DNA of 64,000 nucleotides from Cryomorpha ignava (GCA_040391235.1 JBEBYG010000020.1:1198-65197); one strand, 5' to 3'; numbered from the stretch's first letter, positions 2,113-27,521 are shown. Translations and numbers: made by a program. The notes: generated by a model not told the origin, from the sequence alone.

Positions 2113-3213
2113 TTGGTTGGACCAAACTCAATAACAATGAGAAAAGCTCATTTGATATGCCTAATCGCTACCGTAGCAGGATTAGATGCGTCTGCAAAGG
2201 AGGATTGCATTGGAATTGCTGAGCTGGTCATCACACGATCCAATGGAGGCATTGAGCATCCGCAGATTATTGGCATCCCGACCGTATTTCTAGGTCAGGG
2301 GGATTCAGCCGTGATCCAGTTCTACTACTACATGCCCGGTTGGGATTGCCATTTTCAAGGGTTTTTCGTCACAAGGAATGGTGAACTGATCGAGCCCATC
2401 CCCAATTCTTACTATACCTATGACGTAACCACGCCGGGCTTTTATGAGGATAACGCGGTGGGGATAGACTTGTACGGCACTGGTCAGTTTTACATCTCTT
2501 ATATAGAAACACCGCCTTTGATCCTTGACGTAAAGGCATGGTTGCAAGGGCCATTCGATGCGAACACCGGGCTGATGCGCCACGATCTTCTATCAGCAGG
2601 ATTGGTCCCCTATTGGTCCAGCGCTGGACCAGCGGATTCCTCGGTTTTGAATACGAACGAGCACGGAACCGTTGTTGACTGGGTATCTGTTGAGATCCGT
2701 ATGCCCGATCAATCAACGGTTTTTGGTGGAATTCGGCAGGGGCTGATCTTGACGGATGGCACCATTATCGATCCGAATTTTTTTGGACCTCTGACCTTTG
2801 TAGCACCGCAAGGTGATTATTATGTGGTCGTAGGCCACCGAAATCACCTGCGCGCAATGACCGCGACGGTTGTGAGCTTTGGTGACGATCCCGTCACTTT
2901 GGATTTCCGGGATCCCGCATTCCCTACCTACGGCATCGAAGCCCGCAAGATCGAAGGGGATGCGGCGCTACTTTGGGCGGGAAAAACACGCAACCAATAT
3001 AGGATCAGCTATACGGGCAACTACAATGACCGCGATGCCATCCTCCAAAGCGTTGGTTCCAAGCCAATGAATACTATCACCGGCTACTGGAGAACAGATG
3101 TGAACATGGACGGCGTGGTGAAATACACCGGAGCAAACAACGACCGCGACGTGATCCTAATGAACCTCGGAAGCACCTTAGCAACTACGGTTCGAGAGGA
3201 ACAGGTGCCCTGA
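2113..3213 (+). CDS. Secreted hypothetical protein with two C-terminal dockerin-like/EF-hand-like repeats
   Basis: N-terminal signal peptide (MRKAHLICLIATVAG). Repeats YTGNYNDRDAILQSVGS and DVNMDGVVKYTGANNDRDVILMNLGS. Local GC is clearly lower than the flanking DNA. Confidence 0.5.
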   Translation: MVGPNSITMRKAHLICLIATVAGLDASAKEDCIGIAELVITRSNGGIEHPQIIGIPTVFLGQGDSAVIQFYYYMPGWDCHFQGFFVTRNGELIEPIPNSYYTYDVTTPGFYEDNAVGIDLYGTGQFYISYIETPPLILDVKAWLQGPFDANTGLMRHDLLSAGLVPYWSSAGPADSSVLNTNEHGTVVDWVSVEIRMPDQSTVFGGIRQGLILTDGTIIDPNFFGPLTFVAPQGDYYVVVGHRNHLRAMTATVVSFGDDPVTLDFRDPAFPTYGIEARKIEGDAALLWAGKTRNQYRISYTGNYNDRDAILQSVGSKPMNTITGYWRTDVNMDGVVKYTGANNDRDVILMNLGSTLATTVREEQVP

Positions 3214-3244
3214 AGAGCCAATTCCTCTGCTGTCTGTTGCATGG

Positions 3245-5710
3245 GTGACCTTCATCACCTCCCACCCAAAAAAGAACGCCGATCTTCGCAGCCTAGTTGT
3301 CGTACGGTCTATGCGGATCTCCTCAGCTGCCCCTGCTGTCTGTTTCCATTGTGGTGATGCGTGCTTGGAAGAGCATGTGATCGCCGATGCCCATGACTTC
3401 TGTTGCCATGGCTGCAAGGCCGTGCACGACCTGCTTCGCGATAGCGGACTGCACACCTACTATGAGCTTGAAAAGCGCCCCGGCACCAAGTCGGTGGCCA
3501 ATGCCGATGAGGCGCGTGCGGAGCTGTTCGACCTGCCCGAGGTGCGCGAAAAGCTGGTGGAGTTCAGCGAGGACGGCATTACCCGGGTGACATTGCATGT
3601 GCCGCAGATGCACTGCAGTAGTTGCATTTGGTTGCTGGAGAACTTGGAAAAGCTGGAGCCTGCCGTAGTGCGTTCCCGCGTGCGATTCGGCCAGAAGGAA
3701 CTCACGGTGAACTTTCGGGAAGGCGACCTCAAGCTTCAGGACCTGATTCTTCTTTTACGGCGCATCGGCTATGGGCCACAACTCACCGGAGCCAAGGGGG
3801 ACAGCAAAGTGGGCGGCGTGCCGCGCATGCTCTACGTGCGCTTGGGCGTGGCTGGCTTCTGCTTCGGCAACAGCATGCTCTTCAGCTTTCCGGAATACCT
3901 GGGAGCGGACATCAGCGATGAATTCCTGCTCAAAGGCTTCAGCTACCTGAACATCCTGTTCTCCCTGCCCGTGCTGCTCTTCTCCGCCAATGGCTTCTTC
4001 ATTTCCGCCTTCGCCGGGATCCGGGCGCGGCGTATCAACATCGATCAACCCATTGCCTTGGGTATCGTGGTGCTCTTTGTGCGCAGCGTGCTCGATGTGC
4101 TTACCAACGTGGGCCCGGGCTACTTCGACTCACTGGCCGGGCTTGTCTTCTTCCTGTTGATCGGTCGCTGGTACCAAGCCTACACGTACCAAGCACTCAG
4201 CTTCGATCGCACGCTGGAGGATTTCCTGCCGATCGCAGTGGTGCGCATGCGCAACGGAGCCGAGGAGCACGTGAGCGTGGGCGACCTGATGCAAGGCGAC
4301 CGCATCCTTGTGCGGGACCAGGAACTCATTCCCGTGGACGGCATTCTGCGCAGCGGACAGGGGCATATCGACAACAGCTTTATCACCGGAGAGCCACTGC
4401 CCATACGGAAGAGCGAGGGAGAGACCATCCGTGCGGGTGGAAGGCAGCGTGGTGCTGCCATCGAAGTGGAAGTACTACGGGCCTTCTCGGACAGCCACCT
4501 GAAACGGCTCTGGGAGGAACATCGTAACGTGAGTTCCGAACGCCCTTTGATGCCACGAACCATCGATGCGGTGGCACGTCGTTTCACAGTGGCCGTGCTG
4601 CTGATCGCCTTGTTCGCTGGACTGTTCTGGTGGTGGTACGACCCGAGCCAGATCTGGCAAGTGGTGACTGCTGTACTTATCGTGGCCTGTCCTTGTGCGT
4701 TGGCGCTCAGCATGCCTTTCGGCTATGGCCATACCATTCGGCTGCTGGGCAAGCGCGGCCTCTTCCTGCGCGATGCTGAAGTGGTGGAACGCATGTCCTT
4801 CATTGATGCCGTGGTCTTCGATAAGACCGGCACACTCACCGCCCGCGAGGCGTGGGACATGCGCTTCACCGGAGCACCCTTGAGTGAACATGAGCGTTCC
4901 TTGGTCCGTTCGCTTGCACGCAACAGCACACATCCCCTCAGCGCCGTATTGTATTCCGGGTTGAAGGCACCCCTGCTGGAAGTGATGAACGTGAACGAGA
5001 TCGCCGGAAAAGGGATCATCGGCACGGCGGAAGGAGTTGAAGTGACCTTAGGAAGTGCGGCCCTGATGGAAGCACCCGCCTTCACCCCCGAAAAAGGGGA
5101 AGCCGTGGTACACATCGCCTTGGACGGCCGCCACCGGGGGCACTTCATCGTGCGCAAGCAAGCGCGCGCCGGCATGGGCGATAGCGTGCGGGACGTTCGC
5201 ACGGGCGCGATCACCTACCTCGTAACAGGTGACCTGACGGTGGACCCGGAGGTGGCCGCGATGTTCAGTCCTGAGCATACCGTTACGGGATGTACGCCAG
5301 CGGAGAAGGCCAAATTCGTGAAGCAACTTCAGAAGGAAGGCCACCGCGTGATGATGGTGGGCGATGGCCTGAACGATGCCGGCGCTCTGCTCCAGAGTGA
5401 TGTGGGCGTTACCGTGAGCGAGAGTAGCGCCGCCCTCACCCCTGCCAGCGATGCCATTGTGGATGCCTCGGCGTTGCACGCCCTTCCGCGCATGTTGCGG
5501 CTTACCCGCAGTGCCCACCGGATCGTGATCGCCAGCCTCATTCTCTCGTTGCTTTACAATCTTACCGGGGTATCCTTCGCCGTTTCAGGGCACCTCACAC
5601 CGCTGGTTGCCGCCATTTTGATGCCGTTGAGCTCGGTAACTGTGGTTGGTTTTGTATCATTGGCGGTGTGGTGGGCAGCCAGGCGCGAAGGCTTGATCCG
5701 CCGATCCTGA
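3245..5710 (+). CDS. ccoI: Copper-translocating P1B-type ATPase CcoI/FixI
   Basis: N-terminal CFHCGDAC motif, HMA domain (MHCSSC), CPC transmembrane motif (CPCAL), DKTGTLT phosphorylation site and GDGLNDAGAL hinge. The biological start may be the internal Met at 3311 (MRISSAAPAVCFHCGD). Confidence 0.85.
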   Translation: MTFITSHPKKNADLRSLVVVRSMRISSAAPAVCFHCGDACLEEHVIADAHDFCCHGCKAVHDLLRDSGLHTYYELEKRPGTKSVANADEARAELFDLPEVREKLVEFSEDGITRVTLHVPQMHCSSCIWLLENLEKLEPAVVRSRVRFGQKELTVNFREGDLKLQDLILLLRRIGYGPQLTGAKGDSKVGGVPRMLYVRLGVAGFCFGNSMLFSFPEYLGADISDEFLLKGFSYLNILFSLPVLLFSANGFFISAFAGIRARRINIDQPIALGIVVLFVRSVLDVLTNVGPGYFDSLAGLVFFLLIGRWYQAYTYQALSFDRTLEDFLPIAVVRMRNGAEEHVSVGDLMQGDRILVRDQELIPVDGILRSGQGHIDNSFITGEPLPIRKSEGETIRAGGRQRGAAIEVEVLRAFSDSHLKRLWEEHRNVSSERPLMPRTIDAVARRFTVAVLLIALFAGLFWWWYDPSQIWQVVTAVLIVACPCALALSMPFGYGHTIRLLGKRGLFLRDAEVVERMSFIDAVVFDKTGTLTAREAWDMRFTGAPLSEHERSLVRSLARNSTHPLSAVLYSGLKAPLLEVMNVNEIAGKGIIGTAEGVEVTLGSAALMEAPAFTPEKGEAVVHIALDGRHRGHFIVRKQARAGMGDSVRDVRTGAITYLVTGDLTVDPEVAAMFSPEHTVTGCTPAEKAKFVKQLQKEGHRVMMVGDGLNDAGALLQSDVGVTVSESSAALTPASDAIVDASALHALPRMLRLTRSAHRIVIASLILSLLYNLTGVSFAVSGHLTPLVAAILMPLSSVTVVGFVSLAVWWAARREGLIRRS

Positions 5711-5987: not shown

Positions 5988-8122
<2,135 letters not shown>

Positions 8123-8129
8123 TCGAGCC

Positions 8130-8336
8130 ATGTTGAAGTTCGTCACCAACCACCTCAATTCGATCCATGGGATCGCCTTGTGGCCCACTATCGCGTTCGT
8201 GTTCTTCTTCGCCTTTTTCCTGGTGATGCTCTGGTGGGTTTTCACCACGCCACAGAAGGACCTTGAGCACATCGCCAATGTTCCATTGAACGACGAGGAA
8301 GGACAGCCTATCACCACCCACAAGGATCGGACATGA
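8130..8336 (+). CDS. ccoQ: CcoQ/FixQ-family small subunit of cbb3 oxidase
   Basis: 68 aa with a single TM segment (IALWPTIAFVFFFAFFLVMLWWVF), positioned between ccoNO and ccoP. Confidence 0.7.
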   Translation: MLKFVTNHLNSIHGIALWPTIAFVFFFAFFLVMLWWVFTTPQKDLEHIANVPLNDEEGQPITTHKDRT

Positions 8337-9514
8337 ACCATACCGGAACAGCTCTCCCAAGGATCAGTGTACTGGCTGCAGGTCTTTTGATGCTCACGGG
8401 CGTCATGGCACAGGATCCCGTCGCGGCCTCCGCGGCAACGCATGCGTCCTCCACATCCAGCGTGAACCAGTGGTTGCTGGGCATCGCCATACTGCAGGCG
8501 GTACTGATACTTGTCTTCAGCAACATCCTGCGGACGCTCAGCGGACCGGGGCCGCACTGGTCCAAGTTCTTCAATAGCACCGGCGCGCGCACGTTGGTGT
8601 TGCTACCACTACTGGTGGCGGTGGGCAGCACCGCACAGGCACAGGCTTATCACGGACCGGATAACGCGATCAGCGAACAGAGCCTCTTCTGGTTGCTGGT
8701 AATGGTGAATGCATTGCTTCTGTTCGTACTGCTCTTCCAGATGAAACTGGTACACGGCCTCATGCGCTTGTTGGTGGCCCCTTCGGAGACACAGGAAGAG
8801 CCAGTGAAAGCAAAGATCAAACGGTCCTCGTGGTGGGCGCGCTTGGGTCAAAGCCTCACCCGCCAGGTTCCGGTGGAAAAGGAGCAGGATATCGTACTGG
8901 ACCACGAATACGATGGGATCCGTGAGCTGGACAACAGCTTACCGCCCTGGTGGGTCTGGCTGTTCTACGGCACCATCGTATGGGGCGTGGTGTACATGGT
9001 GAACGTGCACGTGATCAAGGTGTGGCCAAACCAAGACACCGAATACCGCTTGGAAATGGCACAGGCCAAAGCCGATGTGGATGCCTACCTCGCTACCCGC
9101 ACCGACCTGGTGGATGAGAACACGGTGGAGCAACACAGCGACCCAGGCGTGATCGCCAATGGCAAGACCATCTACATGGATAATTGCACCCCCTGCCACG
9201 GCAAAGCATTGGAAGGTGTGGAAGGCCTCGGCCCCAACCTCACCGATGCCTATTGGAAGCATGGTGGCGGGATCAAGAACATTTTCAAAGTGATCAAATA
9301 TGGAGTGCCGGACAAAGGGATGATCAGCTGGAAAGCCCAGTTGAAACCCTCGGAGATCGCGGCCTTGGCCGAGTACATCCTCAGCAAGGCGGGAAGCAAC
9401 CCGCCCAATGCGAAGGCCCCTGAAGGGGAACTTTGGAAAGAACGTGAAGCCACCACTGACCCGTCGAACCCAACAAGCGAAACAGATACTGCGCGGACAG
9501 CCGCGATGAAATGA
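8333..9514 (+). CDS. ccoP: cbb3-type cytochrome c oxidase subunit CcoP (monoheme form)
   Basis: N-terminal TM segments, the conserved DGI(R/K)E-region motif HEYDGIRELDN, and a single CTPCHG heme c site. ATGA overlap with ccoQ. Confidence 0.85.
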   Translation: MNHTGTALPRISVLAAGLLMLTGVMAQDPVAASAATHASSTSSVNQWLLGIAILQAVLILVFSNILRTLSGPGPHWSKFFNSTGARTLVLLPLLVAVGSTAQAQAYHGPDNAISEQSLFWLLVMVNALLLFVLLFQMKLVHGLMRLLVAPSETQEEPVKAKIKRSSWWARLGQSLTRQVPVEKEQDIVLDHEYDGIRELDNSLPPWWVWLFYGTIVWGVVYMVNVHVIKVWPNQDTEYRLEMAQAKADVDAYLATRTDLVDENTVEQHSDPGVIANGKTIYMDNCTPCHGKALEGVEGLGPNLTDAYWKHGGGIKNIFKVIKYGVPDKGMISWKAQLKPSEIAALAEYILSKAGSNPPNAKAPEGELWKEREATTDPSNPTSETDTARTAAMK

Positions 9515-10971
9515 CCCCCAAGGAATCCATACCGCACCATACACGCAGGTTCGCACCGGACGTTGCGGAGACCGATACTGAAAGCTACCGTGACCACATC
9601 GCCACGGTGGACAAAGAGGGGAAGCGCATTTGGCTTCACCCCAAGAAGCCTTCCGGACGGTATTTCCGGATGCGCAAATGGTTCGGCTACAGCCTGCTGG
9701 TAGCGCTGGTAGCGATGCCCTGGATCCGCATCAACGGGGAACCGTTCCTGATGCTGAACGTGATCGAGCGGCGGTTCGTGGTCTTGGGCCAGACCTTCTG
9801 GCCGCAGGACATCCACCTCTTCGTGATGGCCTTTCTGGTCGGCGTCATCTTCATCGCCCTATTTACAGTGGCGTTTGGCCGCTTGTTCTGTGGCTGGGCA
9901 TGCCCACAAACGATCTTCATGGAACTCGTTTTCCGTAGGATCGAATACTGGATCGAGGGTGATTGGAAGCAACAGATGGCCCTCAACCGCGGGCCGCTCA
10001 GCACGGAGAAGATCCTTAAAAAGACCGCCAAGCATCTGCTCTTCTTCGGGGTGGCCTTCGCTATCGGCAACGTCTTCCTCTCCTACTTGGTCGGCAGCGA
10101 CCACTTGGTGAAGATCATGCGCGAAGGGCCGATCGAGCACATGGGAAGCTTTGCTGCTTTACTGGGTTTCTCCGCTGTGTTCTATGGTGTTTTCGCATTC
10201 ATGCGGGAACAAGTTTGCACCACCATTTGCCCATACGGCCGCTTGCAAAGTGTACTGCTGGACAGAGAGAGCATCGTGGTGGCGTATGACCATGTGCGGG
10301 GTGAGAAACGCGCCAAGTTCCGCAAGGGCGAGGTGCGGAGTGAGGTGGATAAGGGGGATTGCATCGACTGCAACGCCTGCGTACACGTGTGCCCTACCGG
10401 CATCGACATCCGGAACGGCACCCAGCTGGAATGTGTGAACTGCACCGCCTGCATCGATGCCTGCGATGATATCATGGAGGCGGTACACCTGCCGAAAGGC
10501 CTGATCCGTTTCGCCAGTGAGGCGGAGATATCCGACAAGCGTCCTTTCCGCTGGACCGTCCGAATGAAGGCCTATTCAGCGGTACTCGCTGTACTCGTGG
10601 TCGCGCTGTTCGCGCTGGTACTCACGCGCAGTGATGTGGAAAGCACCGTCCTCCGTACACCGGGCCTGCTCTTTCAAAAACGGGAGGATGGCCGCATCAG
10701 CAACCTCTACTCCTATAAGCTGGTGAACAAGACGAACAAGGACATGCCCGTGCATTTCAAGCTGTTGAACGCAGCCGGCGAAGTGCAACCGGTAGGGGCA
10801 TTCCCCAGGGTGGAACGGGCTTCCATGCGCGCGGGTGAACTGTTCATCATCTTGGATGCGAGCGAACTGGAAGGCTACAATACCCTCCTCACCGTTGGCG
10901 TCTATTCCGGGGACAAATTGCTGGAGAAGGTAAAGACCTCCTTCGTTGGCCCCATGAAACGATCCAAATGA
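9511..10971 (+). CDS. ccoG: Cytochrome c oxidase accessory protein CcoG (4Fe-4S ferredoxin)
   Basis: CIDCNACVHVCPTGIDIRNGTQLECVNCTACIDAC, i.e. two 4Fe-4S cluster motifs, plus TM segments. ATGA overlap with ccoP. Confidence 0.9.
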   Translation: MTPKESIPHHTRRFAPDVAETDTESYRDHIATVDKEGKRIWLHPKKPSGRYFRMRKWFGYSLLVALVAMPWIRINGEPFLMLNVIERRFVVLGQTFWPQDIHLFVMAFLVGVIFIALFTVAFGRLFCGWACPQTIFMELVFRRIEYWIEGDWKQQMALNRGPLSTEKILKKTAKHLLFFGVAFAIGNVFLSYLVGSDHLVKIMREGPIEHMGSFAALLGFSAVFYGVFAFMREQVCTTICPYGRLQSVLLDRESIVVAYDHVRGEKRAKFRKGEVRSEVDKGDCIDCNACVHVCPTGIDIRNGTQLECVNCTACIDACDDIMEAVHLPKGLIRFASEAEISDKRPFRWTVRMKAYSAVLAVLVVALFALVLTRSDVESTVLRTPGLLFQKREDGRISNLYSYKLVNKTNKDMPVHFKLLNAAGEVQPVGAFPRVERASMRAGELFIILDASELEGYNTLLTVGVYSGDKLLEKVKTSFVGPMKRSK

Positions 10972-19571: not shown

Positions 19572-20030
19572 ATGATTACCTTCGGGCTTTCCACCATGAG
19601 GCCCGAAGAAACCATTGACCACCCGATCCGATGGGCATGGCACCGCATCATGCGGCGCTACAATGAACAAGCATCGGCGCACGGCGGCTCGATGAGCATC
19701 GGCTATGTATTGCTGAACATCGATCCCGAAGGAACGCCCAGCACCAAGCTCGGACCCAAAATGGGCATGGAGGCGCGCAGCCTCTCGCGCACGCTGAAGA
19801 ACATGGAGGAGGAAGGCCTGATCAAGCGTGTGCCTGATAGCTCCGATGGTCGCAAGAGCTTGGTGAAGTTGACCGCCAAGGGCAAACAGATGCGCGACCT
19901 GAGCAAGGACACCGTGATCCGTTTTAACGAGGCGGTGCGCGCCCACATTCCAGCGGGTCAACTGCAGACCTTCCACAACGTGATGAACAAGATAAATTCG
20001 TTGCTCGACAACGACGAACTCTTCAAATAA
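19572..20030 (+). CDS. MarR-family transcriptional regulator, first gene of the beta-oxidation operon
   Basis: Winged-HTH MarR core (...LGPKMGMEARSLSRTLKNMEEEGLIKRVPDSSDGRKSLVKLTAKG...). The alternative upstream start at 19524 would include the palindrome inside the coding sequence. Confidence 0.75.
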   Translation: MITFGLSTMRPEETIDHPIRWAWHRIMRRYNEQASAHGGSMSIGYVLLNIDPEGTPSTKLGPKMGMEARSLSRTLKNMEEEGLIKRVPDSSDGRKSLVKLTAKGKQMRDLSKDTVIRFNEAVRAHIPAGQLQTFHNVMNKINSLLDNDELFK

Positions 20031-22390
20031 TGGCAAACAGACAGATCAAGAAAGTAGCCGTCCTCGGATCCGGCGTCATGGGCAGCCGCATCGCCTGCCA
20101 CTTCGCCAATGTGGGCTGCGAGGTATTGCTCCTCGACATTGCTCCGAAGGAAGGCCCGAGGAACAAGATCGTCGATGACGCACTGGCCTTCGCGCTCAAG
20201 AGCAACCCCTCTCCCATCTATGACAAGCGCTTCGCGAAGCGCATCACCACAGGCAACTTCGATGACGACCTTCCGAAGATCAAGGACTGTGATTGGGTGA
20301 TCGAAGTGGTGGTGGAGCGCCTCGACATCAAGCAGCAGGTGTATGCCAACGTGGAGAAGTACCGCACGCCGGGCACACTGATCACCAGCAACACCAGCGG
20401 CATACCGATCCATGCCTTGCTCGAAGGGCGCAGCGATGATTTCGCAATGCACTTCCTCGGCACGCACTTCTTCAACCCGCCGCGCTACCTGCCTTTGCTG
20501 GAGCTGATCCCCAGCCCTAAGACCGACCCATCCGTGATCGCCTTCCTGGAGGAATACGGCCGCCGCGGGCTCGGCAAGGTCACCGTGCGCGCCAAGGACA
20601 CGCCCGCCTTCGTGGCCAACCGCATCGGTGTGTTCGGCATCATGGACATCTTCCACCTCATCAACGACATGGGCCTTTCCGTGGAAGAGGTGGACCGCCT
20701 CACCGGACCCGTGATCGGCCACCCCAAGAGCGCCACCTTCCGCACCGCCGACGTGGTGGGATTGGATACGCTGATGAACGTCGCGAAAGGGGTACATGAG
20801 AACTGCCCGAAGGACGAACGGAACGACCTCTTCGCCATTCCGGACTACCTCCAGCAAATGGTGGAGAAGCAGATGCTCGGCAGCAAGACCGGTAAAGGCT
20901 TCTATTACAAGGACCGCAGCAGCAAGAAGGGCGACATCCTTTCCGTTGATCTGAAAACGCTCGAGTACAAACCGCAGGTGAAACCCAAATTCGCCACGCT
21001 GGACGCGGCCAAGAAGGTGGACGACCTGCGCGAGCGCACCAAGCTTGTCTACCACGGCACGGACAAAGCGGGCGAGTTCTACCGCCGCTCCTTCCAAGCG
21101 ATGTTCGCCTACGTGAGCAACCGCATCCCCGAGATCAGCGACGAGCTCTACCGCATCGACGATGGCATGCGCGCAGGCTTCGGCTGGGAACTCGGACCCT
21201 TTGAGGCTTGGGAAGCGATCGGGGTAAAGGAAGTGCTCGCCGACATGGACGCGAAGGGCACCAAGGCGGCACAATGGGTGAACGACTTCGTGGCCGCGGG
21301 CAACACGCACTTCTACAAACGCGAAGGCGGCGTGCGGCTGTTCTACGACATCCCGAGCAAGAGCTACAAACCGGTGCCGGGCCAGGAAGGGCTGATCGTG
21401 CTGGCCGACATGCCCGAAAGCAGTATCGTCTGGAAGAACAAGGACGCCATCGTGCGCGACCTCGGCGACGGCATCCTCGCCGTGAGCTGGAGCAGCAAGA
21501 TGAACACCTTCGGCGCGGAGGTGATCCAAGGCCTCAACAAAGCGATCGACCTCGCCGAGGAAGGCTACAAGGGCCTCGTGGTCTACAACGACGGCGCGCT
21601 CTTCAGCGCCGGTGCCAACGTGGGCATGATCTTCATGATGGCCGTGGAGCAGGAATACGAGGACCTCGACATGGCCATCCGCACCTTCCAGAACACCATG
21701 ATGCGCATGCGCCACAGCAGCATCCCCGTGGTGGCCGCACCGCACCAGCTCTGCCTCGGCGGCGGCACGGAGCTCTGCCTGCACGCGGACAAGGTGGTGG
21801 CGCACGCCGAGACCTATATGGGCCTCGTGGAATTCGGCGTCGGCGTGATCCCCGGCGGCGGCGGCACCAAGGAATTCGCCCTGCGCCTCAGCGACGAACT
21901 GAAGGAAGGCGACATCCGCATCAACCGCATGCGCGAGCGCTTCCTCACCATCGGCCAGGCCAAAGTGAGCACCAGCGGCGAAGAAGCCTTCGACCTCGGC
22001 TACCTCCGCCCCGGCCAGGACGAAGTGATCGTGAGCCGCGCCCACCAGCTCGCCTACGCCAAGGCCTGCGCGCTCGACCTCTGGAGCAAGGGCTACACCA
22101 AGCCGCCCATGCGCCGCGACATCAAGGTGCTCGGCAAGGAAGGCCTCGGCATCGTCTACGTCGGCGCCAACAGCATGCAAAGCGGCAACTACATCAGCGA
22201 GCACGACGCGCTCATCAGCGAAAAGCTCGGCTACGTGCTATGCGGCGGCGACCTCTCGGAGATCACGGAGGTTTCCGAGCAATACCTCCTGGACCTGGAG
22301 CGGAAGACGTTCTTGGAGCTGTGCATGCAGCGGAAGACGCTGGAGCGGTTGCAGAGCATTATTACTACTGGGAAGGTTTTGAGGAACTAA
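20030..22390 (+). CDS. fadN: Bifunctional 3-hydroxyacyl-CoA dehydrogenase / enoyl-CoA hydratase (FadN/FadB-like)
   Basis: N-terminal Rossmann fold (VAVLGSGVMGSRIA), HAD domain and C-terminal enoyl-CoA hydratase/isomerase domain. 786 aa. Start overlaps the MarR stop codon. Confidence 0.9.
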   Translation: MANRQIKKVAVLGSGVMGSRIACHFANVGCEVLLLDIAPKEGPRNKIVDDALAFALKSNPSPIYDKRFAKRITTGNFDDDLPKIKDCDWVIEVVVERLDIKQQVYANVEKYRTPGTLITSNTSGIPIHALLEGRSDDFAMHFLGTHFFNPPRYLPLLELIPSPKTDPSVIAFLEEYGRRGLGKVTVRAKDTPAFVANRIGVFGIMDIFHLINDMGLSVEEVDRLTGPVIGHPKSATFRTADVVGLDTLMNVAKGVHENCPKDERNDLFAIPDYLQQMVEKQMLGSKTGKGFYYKDRSSKKGDILSVDLKTLEYKPQVKPKFATLDAAKKVDDLRERTKLVYHGTDKAGEFYRRSFQAMFAYVSNRIPEISDELYRIDDGMRAGFGWELGPFEAWEAIGVKEVLADMDAKGTKAAQWVNDFVAAGNTHFYKREGGVRLFYDIPSKSYKPVPGQEGLIVLADMPESSIVWKNKDAIVRDLGDGILAVSWSSKMNTFGAEVIQGLNKAIDLAEEGYKGLVVYNDGALFSAGANVGMIFMMAVEQEYEDLDMAIRTFQNTMMRMRHSSIPVVAAPHQLCLGGGTELCLHADKVVAHAETYMGLVEFGVGVIPGGGGTKEFALRLSDELKEGDIRINRMRERFLTIGQAKVSTSGEEAFDLGYLRPGQDEVIVSRAHQLAYAKACALDLWSKGYTKPPMRRDIKVLGKEGLGIVYVGANSMQSGNYISEHDALISEKLGYVLCGGDLSEITEVSEQYLLDLERKTFLELCMQRKTLERLQSIITTGKVLRN

Positions 22391-22396
22391 CTCGAG

Positions 22397-22819
22397 ATGT
22401 CTGCGACTATACATATCAGCCGAACCGTGGTCGCCACACTAACCATGTTGTTGGGTCATGGGGTCTACTCGCAAGAGCCCAGTTTCTACCGTGTCTTTGG
22501 ACCTGGGCCTGACTACAATAACACGACACTCGTGATGGAGGATGGCTCGACGATGAAGCACGACTCCACCACATGCACGGTTGAACGCATTGACGACAAT
22601 GGCAAGGCGATCTGGACCACGGATCTAAGTGCGTATGGATGCATGCTGATGTACTTCGGAAAAGTGTCGGAAGGCAAGGTGAAAGGCTGTGACATACTCG
22701 TGCAGTTCGAGGACAAACGGATCTGTGGCATCCGCATGAAGACGGGCAAGCTCAAATTGTTACCGCAAGAAGACGTTGACCTTATGGATAAGCGCTCAAA
22801 ATCAAAACCCGTGAAATGA
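22397..22819 (+). CDS. Hypothetical small secreted protein; first gene of the low-GC island
   Basis: Signal-peptide-like N-terminus. GC is about 50% against more than 60% in the flanks. Confidence 0.45.
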   Translation: MSATIHISRTVVATLTMLLGHGVYSQEPSFYRVFGPGPDYNNTTLVMEDGSTMKHDSTTCTVERIDDNGKAIWTTDLSAYGCMLMYFGKVSEGKVKGCDILVQFEDKRICGIRMKTGKLKLLPQEDVDLMDKRSKSKPVK

Positions 22820-22984
22820 TATGTGGCCCAGGACAGAGCGATTCTTTGAGCTTGCCCCTCGCAAAGCCTCGGCTCGCTCTTGGAGTTCAGCCTGAGCGAA
22901 GTCGAAGGGCTGCAAGTCCTCGCTCGTTCGTTAATGCAGGCTCACCGCTTGAATCGTTCAGGCAACATAGTGACTCACGAAAGC

Positions 22985-24694
22985 ATGACTATTGAAGAAC
23001 TCAAACAATTGAAGGAATCGGAAGACCGCGTGGAATTCAAGGAAGCACGGAACAACTTCTCCTCTGCCGGCAGCAAGCATGTTGACCCGAATGAGCGACG
23101 CCGGTGCTTGCTTGGCTATGTGGTTGCTCTTGCAAACGAAGGTGGTGGACACTTGGTATTGGGTATGACCAATGCACATCCGCACGAAGTGGTAGGTTCA
23201 GTTTTTGCAGCAGGCAAGATTGGAGGATTGGAGGACGACGTATACCAAAAGCTTCGCATTCGCGTGCACGTCCAGGAGTTGTTCGAGGAAGATAAGCGCG
23301 TAATGATCATCCACATACCTTCTCGGGCGCCGGGTCGGCCATTAAAGTTTGAAGGTGTCGCCTTGATGCGCACTGGGGACAGCTTGCGTCCAATGTCCGA
23401 CGATGAATTATTGAGCGTGCTATCTGAGCAAGAACCAGATTTTTCCGCCAAGATCTGTAAAGGATTAACGATTGATGACCTTGACCTAGAAGCTGTGGCA
23501 CGAATGAAGAATGCCTATGCGAAAAAACAGAAGAACCCGGCCTTCGCACAGCTCAGTTTGCAACAGACGTTGAGCGATCTAGAACTATCCAAAGCGGAAG
23601 GGCTGACTTATGCAGCGCTCATTCTACTGGCCAAAGTTGATTCTATCAAGCAATATCTACCGCAGAGCCGAATCATTCGGGAGTACCGCAATGATAATGC
23701 GCAGATCCACCACGATTCTCGAGAAGTGTTCGAGGGTCCGCTTTATAAGGTGATCGATGCTGTTTGGAATGCTATCAACGACCCACGCCTCAATAGAAAG
23801 ACCCCGGTGCAGTTTGGCTCCTACATCTTCGATATTTTCAGCTTGAACGAATCGGTGATTCGTGAAGCTCTGTTGAACGCTGTAGCGCACCGCGACTACA
23901 CCATGCAGAGCGAAGTTGTTGTGAAGCAATATCCTGACCGAATTGTAATTAACAACCCAGGCGGTTTCCCTAAAGGTGTAACGCTAGAGAATTTGCTTAC
24001 TGTAAACAGCACGCCACGTAGCCGCCTGATGACCGAGGTCATGGAGAAGACCGGTTTAGTGGAGCGCAGTGGGCAGGGCGTAGACAAGATCTTCTCGATA
24101 ACTTTATCTGAGGGAAAAGCCGAACCGGATTACTCAGCATCTGATGCATTTCAAGTGACGCTAGCTATTTCATGCACCATCATAGATAAAGCCTTCCATG
24201 TTTTTATCAATCGTTATCAGCAGAGTGACAAGGAGCCCAAGCTGGGCGTAGAGCAAATCATCACCTTATGCAAGGTGCTGAATGGAATGTTCCAGAATCT
24301 GAAGCAGCCAATCGTGGACCAATTGATACAAATGGGTATGGTTGTTCGTCCACACCATTCGGCTAGGCGCTACCAATTGCCTGACGAGTATTATCAGATG
24401 GTGAGTGATGGCCTGCGAATCGGTAAGAGGTATCTCACTTACGAGATTGAGCCAATCATCCTTTCCTTGCAGGAAGGAGGTAAGAAGATAGGTGAGTTAG
24501 CCCCGATTATGGAGGTCGATTTATCCCGAAGCCAATTGCGCAGCTTGCTGCAAAGGCTTATCGAGGATGGTGTCGTGGTTTCCAGTGGTAAGTTAAAGGG
24601 AACCCGCTACTCACTCTCTCCTCAATTCGCTAGTCTGCGAGGCAGCACTCTTGTTCATGAGGCGTTTTCACAACTACGCTCAGTTCATGAGTGA
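22985..24694 (+). CDS. AlbA_2 (Schlafen-like 'divergent AAA') - HATPase_c_4 - winged-helix protein; putative nucleic-acid-binding ATP-binding regulator or defence protein
   Basis: MTIEELKQLKESEDRVEFKEARNNFS is the AlbA_2 N-terminal signature. EALLNAVAHRDY is the HATPase_c_4 (RecG-C-like) signature. The C-terminus GKLKGTRYSLSP looks like a winged HTH. The ORF could alternatively start at 22880. Confidence 0.7.
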   Translation: MTIEELKQLKESEDRVEFKEARNNFSSAGSKHVDPNERRRCLLGYVVALANEGGGHLVLGMTNAHPHEVVGSVFAAGKIGGLEDDVYQKLRIRVHVQELFEEDKRVMIIHIPSRAPGRPLKFEGVALMRTGDSLRPMSDDELLSVLSEQEPDFSAKICKGLTIDDLDLEAVARMKNAYAKKQKNPAFAQLSLQQTLSDLELSKAEGLTYAALILLAKVDSIKQYLPQSRIIREYRNDNAQIHHDSREVFEGPLYKVIDAVWNAINDPRLNRKTPVQFGSYIFDIFSLNESVIREALLNAVAHRDYTMQSEVVVKQYPDRIVINNPGGFPKGVTLENLLTVNSTPRSRLMTEVMEKTGLVERSGQGVDKIFSITLSEGKAEPDYSASDAFQVTLAISCTIIDKAFHVFINRYQQSDKEPKLGVEQIITLCKVLNGMFQNLKQPIVDQLIQMGMVVRPHHSARRYQLPDEYYQMVSDGLRIGKRYLTYEIEPIILSLQEGGKKIGELAPIMEVDLSRSQLRSLLQRLIEDGVVVSSGKLKGTRYSLSPQFASLRGSTLVHEAFSQLRSVHE

Positions 24695-25190
24695 GCACTT
24701 CTGGTATACGACTTACAAGAAGGACCAGTACTCTCAAGTGATGGTTAGCATCCCCAAATCACGTCCCCTGATTCCGCAGATGGTTAAACCTATCTGTTCT
24801 TCATATCTACTGTCTAAAGTTGACATATCTGAAATGGCCGCATCCGAAGAGACTGGTATACAGGCAGTTGCAGATTCACCCATCGAACCTAGTCACATCT
24901 GTATCAGCCCTCATATCTATTATAACATGTTTGGTGATGATTACGAGCTACCATGCTTCCGCCTTGTACCCTCTTCTCCAAATCGGAGGGAAGATTCTGA
25001 CATAAATGGTAGAGTGACCCGCTTCTCAACTGAATCCCAGCTCGTTACGACGTCACCGCTATTCATCAAATCTACCTACCACCTTACATATCTGGATTCA
25101 ACCCTCGCACGCCACTTGAGTGATAGCAGCGGAACGCTCAGAATCGAAACGCACAATTGTATCACACAGGGAATTACGCGTACAACTTGA
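24687..25190 (+). CDS. Hypothetical protein, translationally coupled to the AlbA_2 gene
   Basis: Its ATG lies inside ATGAGTGA, overlapping the upstream stop codon. AT-rich with no recognisable domain. It may not be a real gene. Confidence 0.35.
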   Translation: MSEHFWYTTYKKDQYSQVMVSIPKSRPLIPQMVKPICSSYLLSKVDISEMAASEETGIQAVADSPIEPSHICISPHIYYNMFGDDYELPCFRLVPSSPNRREDSDINGRVTRFSTESQLVTTSPLFIKSTYHLTYLDSTLARHLSDSSGTLRIETHNCITQGITRTT

Positions 25191-25235
25191 ATTTCAAAGG
25201 CTACAATACAGGAAATTGATTAACGCCGAGACAAG

Positions 25236-25535
25236 ATGAACTACAACCTCAACATGCTCATTGCCGCCGCTAACAAACAGTGGAGAGGAGACAACCCGAA
25301 TTTCATTCAACTTGAGTATGCTCCGGAGAATGTGATCAGAGCGTCAAAGGGCGATGTCTCGTACTACTTCGATTATGAGAAGGTAAAACTCATACTTCAG
25401 CTGAACGAGGTGGACCTTCACGACGAAAGGGCGACCTATGATGTACTTGGCAAGCATCTCGCAAACCAGCTTTCCGCATCAATGGGCACTAAAATCTTCC
25501 CGGAGATAAAAAGCCACACAAGCGATTACATTTAA
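25236..25535 (+). CDS. Hypothetical small protein (99 aa) in the low-GC island
   Basis: Clean ORF in the AT-rich region with no recognisable motif. Confidence 0.4.
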   Translation: MNYNLNMLIAAANKQWRGDNPNFIQLEYAPENVIRASKGDVSYYFDYEKVKLILQLNEVDLHDERATYDVLGKHLANQLSASMGTKIFPEIKSHTSDYI

Positions 25536-25695
25536 AGCTCATGGCGGTTTGGAGATACAATATAAAGATAGCAGCAGATAGTATGACCCAGCTGCATTTG
25601 AACGTCAGCACGCCCACTCTTCGAAGCAGCTCAGAGCAGTCAATTTTAACAAGCTCAGAACGAGCAATAGAACCGAACTAAAAAGCAACAACAAT

Positions 25696-26871
25696 ATGGA
25701 TGCTTACATCATAGCCGGATTCCGTTCCGCAGTAGGAAAAGCCCCCCGTGGCAAGTTCCGTTTCACACGTCCCGATGACCTCGCGGCACATGTGGTCAAA
25801 CACCTGATGGCCTCCGTGCCGAACCTCACCACCGACCAGGTGGACGATGTGATCGTGGGCAACGCCACGCCCGAGGCCGAGCAGGGCTTGAACATCGGCC
25901 GCTTGATCAGCCTGATGGGCCTGAACAACGAGAAGGTGCCAGGCATGACGGTGAACCGCTATTGCAGCAGCGGCAGCGAGACGATCGCGATTGCCAGCGC
26001 CAAGATCCACAGCGGCATGGCGGATTGCATCATCGCCGGGGGCGTGGAGTTCATGAGCCCCATCCCTTTCGGTGGCTGGCGCATCGTGCCGAACGCGAAG
26101 GTGGCGCAGGAACATCCCACGTGGTATTGGGGCATGGGCCTCACCGCCGAGGCCGTGGCGCGCGAGTACAACGTGACGCGCGAAGACCAGGATGCATTCG
26201 CGCTACAGAGCCAGGAAAGGGCACTGGCCGCCATCGCTGCCGGGCGTTTCAAGGACGAGATCGTGCCTTTCGAGGTGGAGCACGTGTACCTGGACAAGAA
26301 CGAAAAGCGGCAGGTGGAGAATTACGTGGTGGATACGGATGAGGGCCCGCGCGCAAGCACCTTGGAAGGGCTGGCGAAACTGCGCCCCGTCTTCGATCCA
26401 AAAGGCACCGTGACCGCCGGAAATTCCTCACAGACCAGCGATGGCGCGGCTTTCGTGCTGGTGGTGAGCGAGCGCATGCTGAAGCAATTGAATGTGAAGC
26501 CGATCGCACGCCTCCTCTCCTACCACGTGGCCGGGGTGCCACCGCGCATCATGGGCGTCGGTCCGATCGCGGCCGTGCCGCCAGCCTTGGAGAAGGCCGG
26601 ATTGAAGCTGAAGGACATCGGTGTCATCGAGCTCAACGAGGCCTTCGCCAGCCAGAGCGTGGCGGTGATCCGCACCTTGGGACTGGACCCGGAGATCGTG
26701 AACGTGAACGGCGGCGCCATCGCCATTGGTCATCCGCTGGGCTGCACCGGCACGAAGCTCAGCGTGCAGCTCTTCAACGAGATGCGGCGCAGGAAGCAGA
26801 AGTACGGCGTGGTGACCATGTGCGTGGGGACCGGGCAAGGAGCGGCGAGTGTGTTTGAGTTGTTGAATTGA
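25696..26871 (+). CDS. fadA: Acetyl-CoA C-acyltransferase (3-ketoacyl-CoA thiolase)
   Basis: Thiolase N- and C-terminal domains: active-site NRYCSSG (Cys), GHPLGCTG, CVGTGQG. Confidence 0.9.
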   Translation: MDAYIIAGFRSAVGKAPRGKFRFTRPDDLAAHVVKHLMASVPNLTTDQVDDVIVGNATPEAEQGLNIGRLISLMGLNNEKVPGMTVNRYCSSGSETIAIASAKIHSGMADCIIAGGVEFMSPIPFGGWRIVPNAKVAQEHPTWYWGMGLTAEAVAREYNVTREDQDAFALQSQERALAAIAAGRFKDEIVPFEVEHVYLDKNEKRQVENYVVDTDEGPRASTLEGLAKLRPVFDPKGTVTAGNSSQTSDGAAFVLVVSERMLKQLNVKPIARLLSYHVAGVPPRIMGVGPIAAVPPALEKAGLKLKDIGVIELNEAFASQSVAVIRTLGLDPEIVNVNGGAIAIGHPLGCTGTKLSVQLFNEMRRRKQKYGVVTMCVGTGQGAASVFELLN

Positions 26872-27521
26872 TCTATTCCTTCCACATGGGCACCACCACC
26901 TTCGACCCCAAAACCCATTGGGAGCACATCTACGCCAACAAAGGCCCGCAGGACGTGAGCTGGTTCCAAGCGATGCCGAAGGTCTCATTGGACCTCTTCG
27001 CGGAATACGGGGTGCGCAGCGATGCACGCCTCATTGATATCGGTGGTGGCGATAGCCTATTGGTGGACCACTTGCTGGACCGGGGCTTTACCGACCTGAC
27101 CGTGCTGGACATCAGTGGCAAGGCCTTGGAGAAAGCGCAACATCGCTTGGGTGACCGAGCCAAGGCGGTGGAATGGATCGAGGCCAGTGCCACGGAATTC
27201 GAGGCGAAAGGTCTCTTCGATGTCTGGCACGACCGGGCGGTATTCCACTTTCTCACTACGGACAAGGAGGTGGAGCTCTACTTGGAAAAACTGTCGAAAT
27301 ACTTGGCTCCCGGCGGGCTGTTGATCCTGGCCACCTTCAGCGAGAACGGGCCGGAGAAGTGCAGCGGTATCCCTGTACACCGCTATAGCGAATCGGAAAT
27401 GACCGCCCGACTGGAACGCGTCTGCAACAAGATCAAGTGCATCACGGTGGATCACGAAACACCTTCACAAAAGATCCAGAACTTCCTCTTCTGTGCATTC
27501 CGGAAACCTGAAGCCGCATAG
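26868..27521 (+). CDS. Class I SAM-dependent methyltransferase
   Basis: Motif I LIDIGGGDS. ATGA overlap with the fadA stop codon. Confidence 0.7.
   Translation: MIYSFHMGTTTFDPKTHWEHIYANKGPQDVSWFQAMPKVSLDLFAEYGVRSDARLIDIGGGDSLLVDHLLDRGFTDLTVLDISGKALEKAQHRLGDRAKAVEWIEASATEFEAKGLFDVWHDRAVFHFLTTDKEVELYLEKLSKYLAPGGLLILATFSENGPEKCSGIPVHRYSESEMTARLERVCNKIKCITVDHETPSQKIQNFLFCAFRKPEAA

Follow-up and report, generated by a model that had tools for sequence, protein, structure and literature searches.

Prokaryotic Schlafen (pSlfn) proteins cleave tRNA and defend against phage (PMC13056530), and in a survey of 5,930 prokaryotic Schlafens, 34% were HisKinase fusions and 19.2% had the HisKinase-helix-turn-helix (HTH) arrangement (Perez Taboada et al. 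2026, PMC13056530). The pairing of a Schlafen (SLFN) with a GHKL ATPase domain, termed 'Schlatpase', made up 58.6% of 103,533 Schlafen proteins (Kuzmenko et al. preprint, 10.64898/2026.05.29.728809). Most Schlatpases are small proteins with or without a C-terminal HTH, while in an Argonaute-linked SLFN-pAgo protein ATP binding leads to a tetramer whose Schlafen domains cut tRNA (10.64898/2026.05.29.728809). Here, we describe a gene of this kind in a 64,000-nucleotide (nt) stretch from Cryomorpha ignava (GCA_040391235.1, JBEBYG010000020.1:1198-65197), referred to below as the window, with positions counted from its first letter. The gene lies in a low-GC island (22391-25695) between fadN and fadA, which an initial annotation had proposed to be a candidate new defence module made up of one large Schlafen-ATPase gene and three further open reading frames (ORFs), called here orf1, orf3 and orf4.

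The large protein is a member of the known 'Schlatpase-HTH' or pSlfn-HisKinase-HTH class. SLFN-GHKL(-HTH) is the commonest prokaryotic Schlafen class and was described in 2026, and the island can thus not be called a new module; Schlafen-GHKL proteins account for more than half of prokaryotic Schlafens, and its protein has the plain 'Schlatpase-HTH' form. By analogy with the described members, we consider it probable that the protein is a latent ATP-gated RNase serving abortive defence. The additions made here are a conserved repeat array downstream of the gene, orthologs that lie beside hsdR, and polar bracketing of the cargo by left (LE) and right (RE) repeats within an operon.

Domain structure and conserved motifs of the large protein

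The gene occupies 22985-24694 on the forward strand and encodes a Schlafen(AlbA_2)-GHKL ATPase(HATPase_c_4)-winged-helix protein of 569 aa, in which the Schlafen domain is encoded at ~23024-23395, the GHKL Pfam match at ~23909-24163 and the winged-helix region at ~24182-24691. The initial annotation had given a length of 570-604 aa and a start at either 22985 or 22880. More than 5500 homologs were scored, and all 120 of those listed begin MTI.. at the ATG at 22985; as the sequence upstream (22835-22968) is moreover a copy of the LE repeat described below, the start was placed at 22985, and the alternative at 22880 was not borne out. Public calls of 586 aa (NCBI) and 604 aa (Logan) begin inside LE, in the region 22880-22984. 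Because the LE repeat reads in frame with the gene, these calls carry a spurious N-terminal extension.

The domain assignments of the initial annotation (AlbA_2, HATPase_c_4 and a C-terminal winged helix) were supported by both Pfam and Foldseek. The Pfam family SLFN_AlbA_2 matched with 37.3 bits against a cut-off of 25.3 (E=4.4e-9) and HATPase_c_4 with E=2.1e-17, placing PF04326 and then PF13749 in one protein, a pair that is precomputed for nearly all 120 homologs. The Protein Data Bank (PDB) entry 3LMM was matched both by sequence (2e-16) and by Foldseek (5e-18). An AlphaFold model of the large protein had a mean pLDDT of 67, with values of 78-93 in the N-terminal part and 71-92 in residues 400-569. 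The GHKL part of the model was poor (pLDDT ~30), so that the assignment of this domain depends on the sequence matches to Pfam and 3LMM. In Foldseek searches the N-terminal lobe matched 5YD0 (SLFN13; E=3.7e-4, probability 1.00) as well as SLFN11/12/5/14 and 2KYY, and the C-terminal third (residues 400-569) matched winged helices of MarR, ArsR/SmtB and ScpB. The structural comparison thus supports the Schlafen lobe and the winged helix, and PADLOC gave no system-level assignment.

Three motifs were invariant in the family: ESEDxVEFK, an xALAN/xAFAN Schlafen box followed by GG..LGM, and REAxLNAxAHRDY. The Schlafen box of the window protein is VVALANEGGGHLVLGM, and N51, G54, G55, G60 and M61 were invariant in 43 sequences. 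Its GHKL box reads R-E294-A-L-L-N298-A-V-A-H-R-D-Y; E294 and N298 were invariant, and their counterparts in RzAgo, the SLFN-pAgo of Runella zeae, are E314/N318. Relative to the allele at a related locus (L025), differences in the gene fell 86/48/307 over the three codon positions, which indicates purifying selection on the large gene.

Compared to described members of the Schlatpase-HTH class, the window protein showed the same PF04326-PF13749-HTH order, the same Schlafen box with its glycine-rich core and the same GHKL E...N box, and its gene is likewise a single-gene unit tied to a defence island. It differed in that ESEDxVEFK is one residue longer, in an Asn at the presumed third acidic position, in the conserved array downstream of the gene, and in a location inside a housekeeping operon, bracketed by LE and RE. 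The SLFN-GHKL supradomain is also that of RzAgo; the window protein, however, has winged helices in place of the Argonaute core and would thus be without guide-directed sensing. The only solved full-length homolog is DIP2311 of Corynebacterium diphtheriae (3LMM), for which the match covers the Schlafen and GHKL parts. DIP2311 is ~17% identical to the window protein and is uncharacterised, such that no functional information can be drawn from it.

A strand-specific repeat array follows the gene

The 3' spacer after the large gene (24695-25101, forward strand), which makes up most of orf3, is a strand-specific array of ATTCTCCATAT-like direct repeats in a spacer of ~400 nt. In the 420 nt after the stop codon, CAWATC occurred 7 times on the forward and 0 times on the reverse strand, against a background of 0.13. 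An alignment of the four 3' regions of the window, L025, L081 and L096 showed that units like TTCTCCATATC-N12-TTGACATATC were conserved in all four. In 9 of 10 distinct alleles, among them those located in type I restriction-modification (RM) operons, the gene is followed by an ATTCTCYRTAT array, in all nine on the forward strand; the exception is L084. These arrays have 3-10 copies with a commonest spacing of 20-21 nt (spacing is irregular in most alleles), and they are conserved across hosts of 38-57% GC and in both RM-operon and fad-hotspot contexts. The array of the window is the most degenerate among the alleles.

Exact copies of TTCTCCA (with counts for a looser motif in brackets) numbered 7 (8) in L213, 6 (9) in L212 and 8 (10) in L216, and the array of L211 is the variant ATTCTCTGTAT. 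Every exact copy was on the forward strand, and the sequence upstream of the gene, like the coding strand of the gene itself, had none; the looser motif gave 1-4 reverse matches in L025, L211, L212 and L216. The array was not a general feature of sequence beside RE copies. Term searches of PMC13056530 and 10.64898/2026.05.29.728809 returned no mention of a downstream repeat array or of LE/RE.

The initial annotation had interpreted this region as a 167-aa ORF (orf3) translationally coupled to the large gene. The ATGAGTGA overlap on which this was based is present at 24687-24694. A coupled protein gene, however, was not supported: GC at the three codon positions is flat (0.45/0.45/0.47) and without codon periodicity, and between islands substitutions are spread evenly over codon positions with a synonymous:nonsynonymous ratio of ~1:3.5. 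In a comparison of L096 with L025, all six frames scored about equally. The motif units occupy two different reading phases, indicating that the repeats are conserved at the level of nucleotides rather than protein, and the orf3 protein had no family match in Pfam, PADLOC or NCBIfam. The orf3 region is thus a repeat array that is not supported as protein-coding. The reading of orf3 as a conserved partner, based on a similarity of 28-31% to ORFs of L025 and L096, was contradicted by the codon counts, the six-frame comparison and the motif phase, all of which argue against coding.

The frame that overlaps the end of the large gene was open in 4 of 4 islands, with P=5e-4 for the window in shuffled sequence; possible causes are a C-rich composition or selection that keeps translation going within the operon. 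As an observation in its own right, this open frame runs through the array into RE at each of the four loci (window 24687-25190; L025 3098-3631; L081 2465-2992; L096 9493-10050).

Two further candidate explanations for the array were rejected. As a structured RNA, it had a fold z of +1.24 versus shuffled sequence, and the covariation term of the four-sequence consensus was slightly unfavourable (+0.75 kcal/mol). As part of a type III toxin-antitoxin system (ToxIN-like), it would be at odds with its downstream location, with the irregular spacing, with the lack of a terminator and with the same z value. We tentatively suggest that the 569-aa subfamily and its cognate downstream ATTCTCYRTAT array might form a two-part unit, although we hold this to be somewhat doubtful. 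If true, the array would be a binding platform for the winged helices or an RNA partner, and would either determine how latent the nuclease is or link it to the downstream gene.

Exchange of the gene between genomes and its orthologs upstream of hsdR

The large gene recurred in the fadN-fadA gap of L025, L081, L096 and L200, where it was 81-85% identical and had different neighbours, and near-identical Logan contigs also carried it at this junction. The island itself was 99.97% identical in at least 4 sequencing runs; SRR31359984 and SRR23622334 are among the samples in which it is present. A homolog with 72% identity was located between a methyltransferase gene and a MacB gene. Alleles of the large gene show ~25% nucleotide difference, whereas the host core genes fadN and fadA differ by 4-8%, which indicates that the gene has been exchanged rather than vertically inherited. 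GC at third codon positions (GC3) of the gene was 0.54 in the window, 0.66-0.69 in other high-GC hosts and 0.31-0.43 in low-GC hosts, where it equalled host GC. No relative of the large protein was found among PLSDB plasmids (1e-30), and 2.9 million viral contigs contained one homolog only (45% identical); thus, the family is not typically phage- or plasmid-borne.

All four of the 60%-identity orthologs that were examined (P0059, P0064, P0117 and P0093) lie in type I RM operons, directly upstream of hsdR. These RM-embedded orthologs adjoin TIR, Pycsar-like and kinase genes, and their GC3 equals that of the host. An ortholog embedded in a type I RM operon is also found in Algoriphagus jejuensis (BAAAFI010000004). 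In L213 (4125-7985), a TIR-domain gene and a Pycsar-like pair (PycTM and a weak match to Guanylate_cyc) come before the ortholog; type I RM loci in these Bacteroidota thus serve as nested defence islands. The type I RM operon of L211 (GCA_023151275.1) was seen to hold two different Schlafen-ATPase genes (2630-4384 and 8001-9710, encoding 584 and 569 aa), alongside genes for 23S_rRNA_IVP, DUF4917 and a metallophosphatase.

The gene order of the EcoprrI locus is hsdM-hsdS-prrC-hsdR, and PrrC and RloC are anticodon nucleases found in type I RM loci. The 60% orthologs occupy the PrrC slot upstream of hsdR (4/4), and both kinds of protein would be RNases linked to an ATPase that could step in as a back-up when restriction is blocked. 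Their folds are nevertheless unrelated, as PrrC combines an ABC-type ATPase with an anticodon nuclease domain and the window protein a GHKL with a Schlafen domain, and the window copy has no adjacent RM system. The repeat array and the PrrC-like slot beside hsdR together give a testable handle on the regulation of Schlatpase-HTH proteins.

In every case the array is located between the gene and its downstream neighbour; in L211, L213 and L216, only 10-20 nt separate its last unit from the start codon of hsdR. A spacing of 20-21 nt is compatible with proteins bound along a single face of the DNA helix. Such an arrangement would be expected if the protein were mainly a DNA-binding regulator, as in the old COG2865 description ('transcriptional regulator with HTH'), with winged helices that bind the array and control the next gene (hsdR in type I RM operons, orf4 or fadA here) and a Schlafen domain that binds nucleic acid without nuclease activity. 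A motif that is off canonical by one residue, the Asn at position 63 and the lack of defence by the HisKinase fusions tested, all described below, would agree with this. We consider a mainly regulatory role unlikely, however, given that 112-120 homologs all keep ESEDxVEFK, the xALAN/xAFAN box and the ATPase box, which argues for catalytic constraint, and that near-identical genomes differ in whether they have the gene, which is accompanied by abortive infection (Abi) and RM cargo. The regulator and nuclease roles are also not exclusive, and an ATP-gated RNase remains our preferred reading of the protein.

The fadN-fadA junction is a defence hotspot inside an operon

Segment 22391-25695 had a GC content of 0.483, the minimum among all 3305-nt windows of the 64 kb and ~4 standard deviations (sd) below their mean (0.568, sd 0.021); along 22400-25600, GC dips to 0.45-0.53, compared to 0.57-0.66 in the flanks. 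GC3 was 0.54 in the large gene, 0.65 in orf1 and 0.60 in orf4, relative to 0.87 in fadN and 0.82 in fadA. The low GC noted in the initial annotation was thus confirmed. The flanking core genes, both on the forward strand, are fadN on the left (20030-22390; 3-hydroxyacyl-CoA dehydrogenase/enoyl-CoA hydratase; Pfam 3HCDH_N, 3HCDH and ECH_1) and fadA on the right (25696-26871; thiolase; Pfam Thiolase_N and Thiolase_C), within a Pfam-supported operon order of MarR, fadN, fadA, methyltransferase and fadE (acyl-CoA dehydrogenase).

A genome scan with fadA as query gave 80 loci, mostly from uncultured Flavobacteriales. In the clade with fadA 83-98% identical (fadN identity across the clade, 78-98%), as across the 42 related genomes compared, the length of the fadN-fadA gap varied between 8 and 5108 bp. 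L002 (9 bp) and L010 (8 bp) have an empty gap, and in L001, the closest relative (fadA 98% identical), it holds 1358 bp of unrelated cargo. Empty junctions in relatives and different cargo in such a close relative together uphold the proposal that the island is an insertion splitting fadN from fadA. In a more distant clade (~75% identity), fadN and fadA were often 4-60 bp apart, and about half of the loci had an insert of 450-955 bp.

Cargo in the gaps of relatives included AbiEi/AbiEii pairs, an AlwI endonuclease with an N6_N4 methylase, an XamI-Eco57I fusion, and putAbiC, HNH_2, AAA_14-DUF4143, KilA-N and 23S_rRNA_IVP genes. Gap GC was lower than flank GC in every case compared, and of the 117 gap ORFs with a length of 100 aa or more, 111 were on the operon strand and 6 on the opposite strand. 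Three Schlafen-ATPase lineages were found at this site; the two other than that of the window (L092, L011, L007 and L044) were 22-33% identical to the window gene and had canonical motifs. Overall, the variable gaps, the Abi and RM cargo, the GC below that of the flanks and the co-orientation of ORFs indicate that the junction is a hypervariable defence and mobile-gene hotspot inside an operon, in one high-GC clade of uncultured Flavobacteriales. The defence context claimed for the island therefore holds, and the junction illustrates that a defence hotspot can sit inside a housekeeping operon.

Neither an integrase nor flanking direct repeats were found in or around the island, in agreement with the initial annotation, and an Rfam scan of 22300-25800 gave zero matches. 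Inverted copies of a structured repeat, missed in the first reading, do flank the cargo. The LE copy (22835-22968, forward strand) is a clade-specific structured repeat of ~130 nt (nhmmer E=7e-12, profile positions 16-128) and ends 16 nt before the start codon of the large gene. The RE of the window is split in two, with orf4 between the halves: the inner half (25102-25139, reverse strand; nhmmer RE profile E=0.0017) forms the end of the Schlafen cassette, and the outer half (25570-25618, reverse strand; E=1.7e-4) is followed by the conserved junction before fadA and aligns with the RE copies of L008, L018, L081 and L096. In 4 of 4 islands, RE starts 365-408 nt past the stop codon of the large gene.

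The repeat is GC-rich and contains two hairpins, with many compensatory changes among the 175 distinct copies. The orientation string '+-' was found in 19 of the 42 gaps and '-+' in none; (+) copies were LE-type, (-) copies were RE-type in 26 of 30, and LE begins at the stop codon of the upstream core gene. The repeat is also found beyond the fad operon: among 80 metagenome loci fetched with the repeat core, 26 showed fad genes, and the notion that LE/RE is exclusive to this operon was rejected on this count. An integron cassette array was rejected as well, as no recombinase was seen in any gap and the repeats occur as inverted LE/RE pairs. The simplest reading is that homologous recombination, acting on LE/RE and the flanking core genes, probably brings about the exchange of cargo, and the polar LE/RE pair may constitute a non-autonomous cassette system that delivers genes into operon interiors. 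Co-oriented cargo between left and right repeats could show how defence genes are swapped without an integrase, in a compact natural system.

Defence hotspots flanked by core genes are known from bacterial pan-genomes, as are intergenic repeats of the REP/BIME type. The fad junction shares with the former a variable occupancy that includes empty sites and the presence of known defence systems as cargo, and with the latter structured intergenic repeats, which here begin at stop codons. In contrast to the known core-gene hotspots, it lies inside an operon, its cargo is almost always co-oriented, and that cargo sits between distinguishable left and right repeats of fixed orientation.

A second variable gap was observed between fadA and fadE, where the window holds a SAM-dependent methyltransferase (26868-27521). 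This gap also varied in L012, L014, L017, L018, L025-L027, L032, L041, L044 and L081, and in relatives it contained LE-type repeats directly after the fadA stop codon and Bro-N/KilA-N-like and LigT-like genes. Single 23S_rRNA_IVP (PF05635) genes of ~126 aa were present in the fadN-fadA gap of at least 10 genomes (L003, L024, L026, L027, L028, L033, L034, L039, L042 and L081), most of them bracketed by a short inverted repeat of their own (..GCAAGATTGTCCTATGCG..) that is distinct from LE/RE. Partially duplicated ends of the flanking genes (3' of fadN, 5' or 3' of fadA), which resemble recombination scars, were seen in or beside variable gaps in L025 (614-837 and 3628-3719), L029, L030, L036, L120, L128 and L161; in contrast to L025 and other loci, no such piece of fadN 3' or fadA 5' sequence was found in the window island.

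Proposed function of the large protein

As a latent ATP-gated RNase, the 569-aa enzyme would normally be kept inactive, and phage infection would lead it to cut tRNA or other RNA and thereby to shut down translation (abortive infection). The array would most likely be the cognate binding site of the protein's own winged helices and, less likely, an RNA partner; in both cases it would help to keep the enzyme latent or to control the following gene. The cassette would be transcribed along with the fad operon, and such co-transcription is probable given that the cassette is co-oriented with the operon and that no terminator was found on the forward strand within the island.

Several observations weigh against this model. 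The catalytic motif, ESEDRVEFK, is one residue longer than the canonical Ex4(E/D)xK, such that E11-S-E13-D-R-V-E17-F-K19 can be read as Ex5ExK or Ex3ExK and the 3LMM alignment takes a one-residue gap; this variant is invariant in the family, while other hotspot lineages have canonical motifs (EGDDWEFK and ENEHCEFK). Position 63, which follows GM(T/S/A) and, judging from its place in the motif, is presumed to be the third acidic metal ligand, is Asn in the window protein and 8 other homologs but Asp in 103 of 112. The PADLOC 2023 models matched via pAgo-associated profiles only, as a result of the SLFN-GHKL supradomain shared with RzAgo, and NCBIfam had no match. The window copy lies between fadN and fadA without an adjacent restriction-modification partner, the array could act on the downstream gene instead of on the nuclease, and no recombinase that might move LE-cargo-RE units was found in any fadN-fadA gap. 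Moreover, two pSlfn-HisKinase fusions gave no defence in E. coli against the phage panel used (PMC13056530).

A last such observation is that the allele of L096 (7810-9530, GCA_041691695.1), which is 85% identical and comes from a genome whose fadN 3' end is 96.7% identical to that of the window, is frameshifted into ORFs of 64 and 509 aa, indicating that cassettes can decay. This allele, together with the split RE and degenerate array of the window, the Asn at position 63 and the rapid turnover between close relatives, could be taken to mean that the cassette is a selfish or decaying passenger of no current benefit to the host, in a hotspot that tolerates co-oriented inserts. The window gene is intact, however, its divergence from L025 falls mostly on third codon positions, the remaining catalytic and ATP-binding motifs are kept, and the nearly invariant island was recovered in several sequencing runs, and we regard a mere passenger as quite improbable. 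An RNase of abortive defence is retained as the probable function.

The small ORFs and the composition of the island

All four ORFs of the initial annotation were present. The first, orf1 (22397-22819, forward strand), encodes a 140-aa protein whose N-terminus is hydrophobic; the gene is not part of the LE-RE unit and has GC of 0.48/0.40/0.65 at the three codon positions. A variant (P0122) was found in a 90% cluster, and weak homologs occur at the same position in L016 and L017, of which the L017 copy is frameshifted (a pseudogene). There was no family match for orf1 in Pfam, PADLOC or NCBIfam. Its place outside the repeat-bounded unit and its decay in L017 speak against membership in a module; orf1 is a separate resident gene.

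The small orf4 (25236-25535, forward strand; 99 aa) is a real gene, and differed from its L092 homolog at 8/7/49 sites by codon position. Its family was small, with 19 clusters among 1.8 billion representatives in a full HMMER search and 2 in a word-based search, and a structure model (pLDDT 60) gave no fold match. The L092 homolog follows a Schlafen-ATPase gene only 25% identical to that of the window. Since the distant homologs adjoin DUF4468 or SocA_Panacea genes and not Schlafen genes, orf4 is not a dedicated Schlafen partner, and the claim that it belongs to the module fails. Together with the outer RE half, orf4 is probably the remnant of a neighbouring cassette.

These results bear on the proposal that the four ORFs form one new defence or Abi operon in which orf3 is coupled to a sensor-effector. 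The ORFs are indeed co-oriented, the ATGAGTGA overlap is real, the overlapping frame is kept open in all four islands at a low P for the window, and orf4 follows a Schlafen-ATPase gene in two contexts. Nevertheless, the proposal is largely refuted and, in our view, very improbable: the large gene recurs with different neighbours, and orf3 has neither the composition, the substitution pattern, the frame preference nor the single motif phase of a coding sequence. The equivalent 'ORF' of L216, called as 152 aa by gene callers, is merely a 129-nt tandem repeat, distant orf4 homologs have other neighbours, and orf1 falls outside LE, with its L017 copy in decay. What related islands have in common is limited to the large gene and its 3' array. 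The island is therefore not a four-gene module; it is horizontally acquired cargo and a composite of three units, namely orf1 as an older resident, the LE-gene-array-RE cassette, and orf4 with half of a second RE.

A separate observation concerns the other Schlafen-ATPase lineages of the hotspot. The same 214-aa HNH_2 endonuclease gene (L011 6887-7531; L044 5029-5673) follows two Schlafen-ATPase genes whose mutual identity is 23%, and may be either a recurring nuclease partner or a neighbouring cassette.

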